A stretch of DNA of 64,000 nt from assembly GCF_000026545.1 (NCBI RefSeq), contig NC_011601.1, one strand, 5' to 3'. Of this stretch, positions 44,901 to 47,900 are shown piece by piece; position 1 is the stretch's first letter; each line of letters begins with the position of its first letter. This DNA comes from Escherichia coli O127:H6 str. E2348/69. Its GTDB lineage: Bacteria > Pseudomonadota > Gammaproteobacteria > Enterobacterales > Enterobacteriaceae. Position numbers: made by a program.

Positions 44901-47900
44901 AAAGCTGTGTGAGTGGAAAAGTGTACGGATTCTGGAAGCTGAATGCTGTGCAGATCATATCCATATGCTTGTGGAGATCCCGCCCAAAATGAGCGTATCC
45001 GGCTTTATGGGATATCTGAAAGGGAAAAGCAGTCTGATGCTTTACGAGCAGTTTGGTGATTTGAAATTCAAGTACAGGAACAGGGAGTTCTGGTGCAGAG
45101 GGTATTACGTCGATACGGTGGGTAAGAACACGGCGAAGATACAGGATTACATAAAGCACCAGCTTGAAGAGGATAAAATGGGAGAGCAGTTATCGATTCC
45201 CTATCCGGGCAGCCCGTTTACGGGCCGTAAGTAACGAAGTTGGATGCAAATGTCAGATCGTGTGCGCCTGTTAGGGCGCGGCTGGTAAGAGAGCCTTATA
45301 GGCGCATTTGAAAAACCTCCGGCTATGCCGGAGGATATTTATTGTTTTTCTTTACTTTCATTTTCTGTCGGCGGTGACGGAGACATACATCAGATGGAAA
45401 AAATCACAACAGGTGTGTCATACACCACGTCAGCGGTGGGGACGGGATACTGGTTACTGCAGCTGCTGGACAAAGTCTCTCCGTCCCAGTGGGTGGCAAT
45501 AGGTGTGCTGGGGAGTCTGCTGTTTGGCCTGCTGACGTATCTGACAAACCTTTATTTCAAGATTAAAGAAGATAAGCGCAAGGCTGCGAGAGGTGAATAA
45601 TGCCTCCATCATTACGAAAAGCCGTTGCTGCTGCTATTGGTGGTGGGGCTGTTGCCATAGCGTCTGTGCTCATCACTGGTCCGAGTGGTGACGATGGCCT
45701 GGAAGGTGTCAGCTACATACCATACGAAGATATCGTTGGCGTATGGACTGTATGTCACGGACACACCGGAAAAGACATCATGCCCGGTAAAACGTATACC
45801 GAAGCAGAATGCAAAGCCCTCCTGAATAAAGACCTTGCCACGGTCGCCAGACAAATAAACCCGTACATCAACGTCGATATACCGGAAACAACGCGCGGCG
45901 CTCTTTACTCGTTCGTTTACAACGTGGGCGCTGGCAATTTCAGAACATCGACGCTTCTTCGCAAAATAAACCAGGGCGATATCAAAGGCGCATGTGATCA
46001 GCTACGGCGCTGGACATACGCTGGCGGTAAGCAATGGAAAGGGCTGATGACTCGCCGTGAGATTGAGCGTGAAGTCTGTTTGTGGGGGCAACAATGAGCA
46101 GAGTAACCGCGATTATCTACGTTCTGGTTATTTGCCTCATCGTTTGCCTTTCATGGGCTGTTAATCATTACCGTGATAACGCCATCGCCTACAAAGAGCA
46201 GCGCGATAAAGCCACATCCATCATCGCTGATATGCAGAAGCGGCAACGTGATGTAGCAGAACTTGACGCCAGATACACAAAGGAGCTTGCTGATGCTAAT
46301 GCGACTATCGAAAGTCTCCGTGCTGATGTTTCTGCTGGGCGTAAGCGCCTGCAAGTCGCCGCCACCTGTGCAAAGTCAACGACCGGAGCCAGCGGCATGG
46401 GCAATGGAGAAACCCCAGGACTTACAGCAGATGCTGAACTCAATTATTACCGTCTCCGAAGTGGAATCGACAGGATAACCGCGCAGGTTAACTACTTGCA
46501 GGAGTACATTAGGACGCAATGCCTTCGATGATAGCGATAATTTTCCCATTATCTTTCATATGCGTGATTTTAGTTAGTTTTAGTCGCAACACGAATAAAA
46601 CAGAGAACCACCCGCTATACGAGTGGTTCTGATTTACACTTTTGAAACTAAAAGCTAAATACTTGAGCAAGAACAGCTAACGCTGCGCAAAAAGCAGCCC
46701 GTTTATTCCATTTACTTTGTATTTCAATGGCTTTAAAACAACCCAGTGATGAGAAACTGCCTTGTTCCGTTTTTGGTGGGTGTTCTTTGGAAGATGCAAA
46801 ACATGAAATAATCCAAAAAATGGCGGAAAAAATTCCAAAAATTATTGAAGGCAAATGATGCTCTTTCAAAAACTCCATGACTTAACTCTCTTAAAAGTTG
46901 CTAAACATCGCTCGCAAACAAGAAAGAAAAGTTCTGTTGCGAGCACTCCACAATTTAAACGCCACACAAGCAGCTATTAGGTGGACGGTTCCAAGATTGC
47001 TATCAACTGCCACCCGAATACCGTCAAAACTTGACGTCCAACCAAGAATTATTGAGTTGTAAACTCAACGCAATGATCTGGTTGGTATAAATGTGACATA
47101 TGTCATGAATCGACTAGTTGAGATAGTCAAGATGGGCTTGCTTGACATCATCACCACAACCGGAGCCAACAATGGCAGATTGCGTTACCCAGATTTGATA
47201 AAGGCATTTTAGCCTGACATAACTATGCACTGTATCGTCGCCGTATTCCCGCATCAACAGAGACCACAGCCCGAGAGGGAGACTCCTCTGCGCGAGTGTG
47301 CGGGGATAATCAAAAACGATACACACCGGGGTTTACCGTGTTAACGGAGCGCGGCGTTGTCCCCTCATGGTCGCTGGTCCGGTGCGATGGTGGAAGAAAC
47401 CGGACGATGTGTTACCTCGCAAGCTCTGTTATGTCATGTGTCTGATTTGTGATTTAAGTCGGATAATTGTCATTGCCATTAAGCAGAGGATTGATGACCG
47501 ACAGGGCTGCATTGTTAGAATAAGACTTATTCTTATCTATGCCGGGAATAAAAATGAAAAGAAATCTTCCGTTAATTATTTTGTTGTCTTCTTTGGTTAT
47601 GGGCTGTACGCAACATAAAACAGATATGCCTCGACAGTTGGTTAAGGCATTACCACAATATCCGGCCTATGCCGCGGCAAATTATATAAAGGGACGGGTT
47701 GATGTGAAGTTTGATATTGGTGCTGATGGTACTGTCACCCGAATTGAGTTTATCCGTTCAGAGCCGCACCATCTGTTTGATGAGCAGGTTGTAAAGGCGA
47801 TGGCAAAATGGCGATTTGAGAAGGACAAGCCGCGTAAAGGCGTGAAGAAAACATTTATCTTTAGTCCTTCAGCACCCTGATTATTTTATCAGAAGTTAAT

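Follow-up and report, generated by a model that had tools for sequence, protein, structure and literature searches.

We report that a 64,000-nucleotide stretch of the Escherichia coli O127:H6 str. E2348/69 chromosome (NCBI RefSeq assembly GCF_000026545.1, contig NC_011601.1; hereafter, the window) carries, in a lambdoid prophage, a gene at 47554-47880 (+) for a small predicted lipoprotein that consists almost wholly of a TonB C-terminal domain (CTD). Judged by sequence, it belongs to a family of TonB-CTD lipoproteins carried on chromosomes of Enterobacterales and by lambdoid phages, and a Fur-box-like promoter element recurs across this family. The most likely function, to which we give somewhat less than even confidence, is that of a tethered competitor of TonB that could not itself be energized. 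The domain annotation (TonB_C) is already public: RefSeq labels the open reading frame (ORF) ‘TonB family protein’ (WP_000828067.1, on the E2348/69 chromosome NZ_CP059840.2, to which the window is 100% identical), the phage 21 record has ‘TonB C-terminal domain protein’, and an older O157 annotation reads ‘partial tonB-like membrane protein encoded within prophage CP-933N’. Within the reach of our searches, the points that seem new are that these proteins form a lipoprotein family and are not fragments, that the family has chromosomal relatives and a Fur-box-like promoter element, and how prevalent the gene is.

The ORF has 108 codons (translation MKRNLPLIILLSSLVMGCTQHKTDMPRQLVKALPQYPAYAAANYIKGRVDVKFDIGADGTVTRIEFIRSEPHHLFDEQVVKAMAKWRFEKDKPRKGVKKTFIFSPSAP), and its product begins with MKRNLPLIILLSSLVMGC, followed by TQHKTDMPRQLV. 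The signal combines a K2/R3 n-region, a hydrophobic core, and the lipobox L-V-M-G-C18 with threonine at the +2 position; this cleavable segment is the sole hydrophobic one in the protein, and the mature lipoprotein has ~90 residues. Across 13 family members, Cys18 is invariant and the +2 residue is Thr, Ser, or Ala, never Asp. The established Lol rule is that sorting of lipoproteins is decided by the +2 residue, with Asp as the avoidance signal, and because that residue is never Asp here, default sorting to the outer membrane is expected. After Cys18, just 7 residues precede the TonB-homologous part, and the protein therefore has neither the membrane anchor nor the Pro-rich spacer of TonB.

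Profile searches and structure prediction agree on the identity of the domain. Pfam TonB_C (PF03544) matches residues 34-101 (E=2.4e-15; 57 bits, cut-off 24.6), the TIGR01352 tonB_Cterm domain model matches above its curated cut-off (E=1.7e-15), and phmmer against PDB sequences returned the E. coli TonB CTD entries 1u07, 2gsk_B, and 2grx_C (E about 1e-16), aligning residues 26-104 over TonB 153-231 at about 40% identity across 79 residues. Full-length TonB equivalog models (NCBIfam), whose cut-offs span 265-448 bits, aligned solely at model positions ~152-240, the best of them scoring 74.4 bits against its own cut-off of 315. An AlphaFold2 model, built from a 20-sequence family alignment, has a mean predicted local distance difference test (pLDDT) score of 86.9, rising to >95 over residues 30-100, and its best Foldseek matches are exclusively TonB CTDs, including TonB from the BtuB complex (2gsk_B; target-normalized template-modeling (TM) score 0.92, root-mean-square deviation (rmsd) 1.0 Å, 79 columns) and TonB bound to FhuA (2grx_C; TM 0.92, rmsd 1.1 Å). 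A fold search of BFVD gave nothing significant. The YP motif is kept, as are five TonB aromatics (F180/F202/W213/Y215/F230, here F53/F75/W86/F88/F103), which work from the Postle laboratory reportedly found to matter functionally. Strand beta3 is near-terminal, with only five residues after it. The initial annotation had read from the sequence a signal peptide ending in an LVMG-C lipobox with +2 Thr, a near-complete TonB CTD recognizable by the motifs PQYPA, G.V.VKFD, DG.V, and AM..WR.E, and the absence of anchor and spacer; all of this is borne out, the quoted motifs being present in the phmmer alignment to the PDB sequences, and the fold that it had proposed to check is indeed that of TonB_C.

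The lipoprotein is best understood against E. coli TonB itself (P02929; CTD ~150-239, PDB 1u07, 1xx3, 2gsk, and 2grx), with which it shares the fold, the YP motif, the five aromatics, and beta3. It lacks the last 8 residues of TonB, carries Leu for Q160 and Tyr for R166, and has a lipoprotein signal predicted to direct it to the opposite membrane. Having no N-terminal transmembrane anchor and no Pro-rich spacer, it would not couple to ExbBD, and these two features together with the equivalog score are where it departs from what defines TonB.

This architecture is not confined to E. coli. A word-indexed homologue search recovered close E. coli relatives only, while an exhaustive HMMER search brought out the wider family, i.e., many short proteins (105-135 residues) that align from residue 1 and have a lipobox. 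A scan of one genome per species with a 7-sequence alignment placed members in Raoultella, Klebsiella, Serratia, Erwinia, Pantoea, and Pseudescherichia. The neighborhoods of the Raoultella, Serratia, and Erwinia copies, and more weakly of the Pantoea copy, are mutually unrelated and mostly not phage-like. Going by the leading residues of crude ORF calls, with no profile search, the Raoultella ornithinolytica copy apparently has lacZ-lacI as its neighbor, and that of Serratia grimesii appears to lie between ycgN and dsbB-nhaB-fadR; the Serratia montpellierensis copy is the sole one with an endolysin homologue just upstream, and when 15 genome loci were searched by tblastn with the phage proteins of the window, a single locus (L097) had phage neighbors. 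No conserved partner gene was found in the 11 chromosomal neighborhoods inspected, as would be expected if the protein acts on the universal Ton machinery. The designation of the gene as a prophage accessory thus holds for its slot in E2348/69, but not in the sense of a purely phage invention, since homologues occupy apparently non-phage chromosomal sites. Separately, many high-scoring HMMER matches (P0034, P0037, P0043, and others) are proteins of 370-1300 residues with 3-5 tandem TonB_C-like stretches, an arrangement unlike that of TonB.

A second thread of evidence comes from the promoters. We scanned for Fur sites with the 19-nt consensus GATAATGATAATCATTATC and with the 7-1-7 form (14 scored positions). 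Among 14 genome loci, 11 have a Fur match of at least 14/19 at ~25-70 nt upstream of the start, and in those 11 such matches are the only or nearly the only ones within 9-16 kb; the best of these, at 17/19, belongs to Serratia grimesii. In two further phage-borne clades from IMG/VR (14 loci sampled), a Fur-like element stands at about -34, and several of these loci have a perfect TGATAAT(C/T)ATTATCA right after a TG-extended -10. Counted over the family, a perfect or 1-2-mismatch TGATAATnATTATCA occurs upstream in 20 of 55 loci; those with a Fur-box-like palindrome are L086-L092, L094, L097, L098, L100, and L129-L139 in our numbering. Fur-repressed promoters usually have such a layout, and we infer that the ancestral gene is induced by iron starvation.

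The E. coli phage alleles depart from this pattern. Half of the Fur-like element is missing in the phage 21/Perceval allele, and in the E2348 allele, at the site where other alleles have TGATAAT(C/T)ATTATCA, both half-sites are changed symmetrically into a different perfect palindrome, which matches the Fur consensus at 13/19 positions and the 7-1-7 form at 8/14; such a symmetric change could mark a switch to another dimeric regulator. In addition, the window holds a perfect 7-1-7 match (TGATAATTATTATCA, 48340-48354), against an expectation of 0.01 per window; cosQ GGGTCCT follows 9 nt to its right and cosN ~40 nt to its right. Phage 21 has TGATAATTATTCTCG at the same place, and going by this pair of sequences the palindrome is a conserved cos-flank element. 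Since a perfect match also occurs beside cosQ, a match to the Fur consensus is not proof of Fur binding, and with the 13/19 score and the half-site missing in phage 21 we downgraded the E2348 palindrome as a bona fide Fur box. The -10 that it overlaps sits 32 nt ahead of the ATG and is paired with a weak -35. A promoter scan of the region returned 7 sites against a mean of 5.0 in shuffles, with a single site not significant alone, and the phage 21/Perceval and L129/L133 alleles share the TTGT(T/C)AGAAT block. A scan of the + strand downstream of the gene found no terminator-like site.

The gene is maintained by selection and is common. For the pair of E. coli alleles, E2348 type and phage 21 type, whose proteins share 70% identity, the ratio of nonsynonymous to synonymous substitution rates (dN/dS) is 0.13, i.e., the gene is under purifying selection. 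Of 5426 complete E. coli genomes, 1615 (~30%) have it by blastn, and in 1611 the match covers at least 80% of the gene; ~413 genomes have the E2348 type and ~1200 the phage 21 type (Nissle 1917 included). In IMG/VR it is found on 186-220 contigs, and the best 80 of these viral loci all match over residues 1-107 or 1-108. Isolated phages with the gene comprise phage 21, Perceval, ev017, JLK-2012, Lys8385Vzw, four Stx1a-converting phages, and one Klebsiella phage; in the five annotated records that we inspected, it follows the lysis genes and precedes the terminase genes/cos, while head and tail modules differ.

These data bear on whether the gene might be a non-functional tonB fragment acquired by a phage, as the older annotation wordings ‘partial tonB-like membrane protein’ and ‘TonB fragment’ and several database variants with frameshifted C termini (P0010, P0012, P0013, P0018, and P0019) would have it. 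A dead fragment would hardly have gained a new and invariant lipoprotein signal, nor would it be expected to show the dN/dS, the full-length copies in 1611 genomes, the end-to-end viral matches, the conservation across genera, or the transcription of the Perceval allele described below, and we rejected this reading as scarcely credible on dN/dS, conservation, and expression. The frameshifted variants are an observation in their own right: the five above and P0021, all of phage 21 type, are frameshifted at ~codons 87-95, which replaces beta3 with unrelated tails, and they represent either recurrent inactivation or a sequencing or assembly artifact at one spot.

Lysogen transcription data cover the Perceval allele, which is 70% identical to that of E2348. 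In a published supplementary table, log-expression of the Perceval gene is 5.0-6.6 in all ten samples, above its neighbors Rz (2.3-3.7) and terS (2.3-4.3); it stands ~8-fold over the prophage background and is transcribed independently of the neighboring late genes. In macrophages its log2 fold change is 0.26 while that of host tonB is +1.36, a flat response that is consistent with its partly deleted Fur-like element.

The Fur-box-like element suggests a tie between the family and iron physiology, and a positive or regulatory role in uptake would fit that tie as well. The protein might keep Ton boxes extended, recruit periplasmic binding proteins to the outer membrane (TonB binds FhuD and BtuF), or offer TonB a docking site. 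Such a factor would be co-regulated with uptake genes through the family promoter element and could well sit, as the homologues in Raoultella, Serratia, Erwinia, and Pantoea do, at unrelated and apparently non-phage chromosomal sites; the TonB homologue FusB, among our fold matches, binds substrate by its CTD (PDB 9hi3), and prophages do carry iron-uptake accessories, as Perceval does with sitABCD. We nonetheless consider a positive accessory factor of iron uptake unlikely, because stimulation of transport by an un-energized TonB domain is without precedent and the published periplasmic fragments inhibit, because the Fur element is lost or altered in the E. coli phage alleles, and because the Perceval allele is not induced in macrophages although host tonB is. 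The Fur link itself cuts both ways, as it fits a shield raised when receptors are derepressed and equally fits a positive uptake role.

The function that we favor, competition with TonB from a tether, follows from how the domain works in TonB. TonB CTDs bind transporters by adding the Ton box as a strand beside beta3, and in this recognition by beta-augmentation secondary structure outweighs side chains (PMC11658791). The free beta3 edge of the lipoprotein (residues 94-103) would still pair with Ton boxes, and the lipid tether would put the domain exactly where Ton boxes emerge. Without an anchor the protein would not be energized by ExbBD, and it would compete with TonB from its tether or make dead mixed dimers with it. 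Phages of the T1/phi80 type, group B colicins, and microcins would then enter less readily by TonB-dependent routes, at the cost of some siderophore and B12 uptake. Engineered fragments provide a close parallel: Howard and colleagues reportedly found in 2001 that periplasmic TonB fragments inhibited phi80 infection and colicin M killing. Fragments 33-239, 103-239, and 122-239, exported with a FecA or OmpT signal and likewise freed from the inner membrane, inhibited the TonB system, ferrichrome transport, and iron-limited growth (bioRxiv 10.1101/2020.01.05.895219). These are artificial, soluble, overexpressed, and longer, whereas the natural protein is predicted to be lipid-anchored, spans only the equivalent of 153-231, and has a candidate promoter of its own. 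Because such fragments are dominant-negative and T5 Llp, a small outer-membrane inner-leaflet lipoprotein that excludes phages, docks on the periplasmic face of FhuA, a TonB-decoy mechanism is plausible.

The same fold raises the question of which partner would be occupied. If the target were TonB or ExbD, mixed CTD dimers or binding of the ExbD periplasmic domain would trap TonB at the outer membrane. TonB CTDs do crystallize as dimers (1u07 and 1ihr, among our sequence matches), and aromatics that are implicated in TonB dimer contacts in vivo are conserved here. The original fragment study offered mixed dimers as an alternative and later work raised ExbD-TonB contacts (bioRxiv 10.1101/2020.01.05.895219). 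We regard this target as quite improbable, and since the phenotype would be nearly the same as that of a Ton-box competitor, it is in effect a variant of that reading.

T5 Llp and lambdoid Cor are small phage lipoproteins of the outer-membrane inner leaflet, where the present protein is predicted to lie, and they target a TonB-dependent transporter from its periplasmic side. Their fold is unrelated (the PDB fold search returned TonB/TolA-type domains only and that of BFVD nothing significant, with no Llp or Cor match in either). Llp is FhuA-specific and acts allosterically on extracellular loops, whereas a TonB domain is expected to read many Ton boxes and to block energy-dependent steps only, so that T5 should escape it. 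The mechanism had been called different from that of Cor or Llp, which is right as regards fold and breadth, though topology and target class would match those of Llp. HasB, FusB, and Vibrio TonB2, which are among the fold matches, are also diverged TonB CTDs with specialized partners, but they keep the inner-membrane anchor and energy transduction, of which the lipoprotein would be incapable.

Lambda Bor (Iss-like) shares the slot between Rz and cos and is an outer-membrane lipoprotein, as our protein is predicted to be, that is expressed in the lysogen, but it has no sequence or fold relation to our protein, lies on the opposite strand, and has another proposed function (serum resistance). 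This neighborhood, with bor next to the gene in phage 21 and Perceval, and the predicted outer-membrane location are what would speak for an envelope protein apart from transport, i.e., a peptidoglycan-binding tether or a Bor-like serum-resistance factor; Kaserer and colleagues also reportedly found, in 2008, that the TonB CTD binds peptidoglycan. Putative Fur-type regulation and the closeness to TonB (about 40% identity, rmsd 1.0 Å) point instead to the Ton system, and a Pfam scan revealed no Bor/Iss, OmpA_C, or LysM similarity, and we therefore consider an envelope role very improbable.

Extended to the whole family, the proposal is more tentative, and we would sooner expect it to need revision than to stand entire. 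It holds that there is a natural ‘anti-TonB’ family in which outer-membrane-tethered TonB CTDs would occupy Ton boxes or TonB and uncouple transporters, acting on energy coupling rather than on one receptor. The chromosomal copies would be a brake or shield induced through Fur under iron starvation, a state in which the receptors are derepressed and exposure of the cell is greatest. Lambdoid phages would have captured the gene as a lysogen-expressed accessory, recruited for broad exclusion and for colicin and microcin tolerance, with the Fur element of the E. coli alleles diverging or being partly deleted.

Several points weigh against the competitor function. First, a Fur-derepressed inhibitor of iron uptake is counter-intuitive. 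Second, the J tip of the resident prophage is 93.6% identical to that of phage 434, and its receptor type is not TonB-dependent (not the FhuA type), so the logic of self-exclusion is absent and we rejected it; any exclusion would therefore be aimed at other phages and not at its own kind. Third, expression of the Perceval allele is modest (122-269 reads). Fourth, TonB Q160 and R166, residues that the complexes show close to the Ton box or FhuA, are replaced here by L33 and Y39, and both positions are variable across the family. Fifth, the inhibitory fragments in the literature were overexpressed and had at least 118 residues (bioRxiv 10.1101/2020.01.05.895219). Finally, a full-text literature search found no paper on the function of this protein, and PADLOC had no model matching it, which sets aside a known defense system.

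The genomic setting is that of a phage accessory gene. The host element is a lambdoid prophage beside potC, with a DicB/DicC-type early region and 434-like J, Lom, and tail-fiber genes. Local order runs holin, RrrD endolysin, Rz (PF03245, E=1e-34) with embedded Rz1 (PF06085, E=4.5e-20), a small minus-strand ORF, the TonB-like gene, a DUF3950 gene (minus strand), cosQ/cosN, terS, and terL. The position between the lysis genes and cos and the AT-rich surroundings were both noted in the initial annotation and are confirmed, the GC content of the gene being 0.40-0.44 compared with about 0.50-0.52 for the lysis and terminase genes on either side. Insertions and a deletion have left the prophage defective: ISEc13 and IS200C lie between the SASA esterase gene and holin (43265-45234), and the deletion fuses two truncated genes, those of the S49 head protease and the NlpC/P60 tail protein (52789-53237), most head and tail genes being gone; the TonB-like gene is intact despite this. 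The coordinates of the gene and its signals are collected in the table.

Features of the TonB-like lipoprotein gene, its upstream region, and the downstream cos site (positions in the window)
Feature	Coordinates	Strand	Basis
Promoter-like: -35 ATGACC (47494-47499), 16-nt spacer, TG-extended -10 TGtTAGAAT (47513-47521)	47494..47521	+	Consensus scan, 9/12 with TG
Perfect palindrome AGAATAAG-A-CTTATTCT, overlapping the -10	47517..47533	.	Read from sequence
Shine-Dalgarno-like GGGAA, 6 nt before ATG	47543..47547	+	Sequence; phage 21 record annotates a ribosome-binding site at the equivalent place
Predicted lipoprotein signal peptide MKRNLPLIILLSSLVMG and lipidated Cys18 (lipobox L-V-M-G-C)	47554..47607	+	Sequence, family conservation
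Short tether TQHKTDM, residues 19-25	47608..47628	+	Between Cys18 and start of TonB homology; pLDDT 50-85
TonB C-terminal domain, residues 26-104 (E. coli TonB 153-231)	47629..47865	+	Profiles, phmmer, AlphaFold2, Foldseek
Within the domain: YP motif P34-Q35-Y36-P37; strand beta3, residues 94-103	47629..47865	+	Alignment, model
C-terminal tail PSAP and stop codon; TonB 232-239 without counterpart	47866..47880	+	Alignments
cosN GGGCGGCGACCT, 513 nt downstream of the TonB-like gene	48393-48404		

The same setting underlies a competing label in phage databases, where the best PHROG match (PHROG 1267, E=3e-42, category lysis) is named ‘Rz-like spanin’. The gene does lie just downstream of the lysis cassette on the late-transcript strand. 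An o-spanin, though, is a short Pro-rich lipoprotein that works with an i-spanin, and a u-spanin is a lipoprotein with a C-terminal transmembrane segment, whereas this protein is a globular TonB domain that is neither Pro-rich nor furnished with such a segment; the cassette already has Rz with embedded Rz1, and homologues occur at non-phage chromosomal sites. We rejected the spanin reading, whose probability is practically negligible, on the upstream Rz/Rz1 and the TonB fold. The name was probably transferred on the strength of position; it looks erroneous and will propagate to phage genome annotations.

Other features of the prophage were also recorded. A 76-residue hydrophobic ORF at 46648-46878 (-), which begins MEFLKEHHLPSIIFGIFSAIFWIISCF, lies where the DNA separating Rz from the TonB-like gene is richest in AT (GC 0.36), with a terminator-like hairpin (12-bp stem, 46604-46630) by it; RefSeq calls the ORF ‘hypothetical’, no significant Pfam or PADLOC match was found, and it may be a second accessory gene. 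In the early region, at ~31122-33117, an AAA-family ATPase and HNH endonuclease pair, with IS481 and a frameshifted integrase next to it, may represent an anti-phage module that was inserted there. The prophage also has a Qin-like dicC-ydfABC-dicB block and an IraM anti-adaptor homologue (~24111-26493 and 40384-40719). DicB is a known prophage protein that blocks ManYZ-using phages, and because this block and the IraM homologue share the element, the prophage may hold several host-modifying genes.

If the competitor function is correct, the lipoprotein would be the first inhibitor of the Ton system known from nature, and as a factor for exclusion or tolerance it would be unusually broad, in that one small gene could act on any TonB-dependent phage, group B colicin, catecholate-receptor microcin, or siderophore-antibiotic conjugate. 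As the gene is found in roughly a third of sequenced E. coli, including enteropathogenic (EPEC), Shiga toxin-producing (STEC), and adherent-invasive (AIEC) strains and Nissle 1917, it could bias the host range of therapeutic phages, the competition that gut bacteria wage with colicins and microcins, and how susceptible strains are to Trojan-horse antibiotics, while the Fur link of its chromosomal relatives would add an unrecognized regulatory layer to iron uptake. If the protein is instead a helper of uptake, it would challenge the view that a TonB CTD is useful only when energized.

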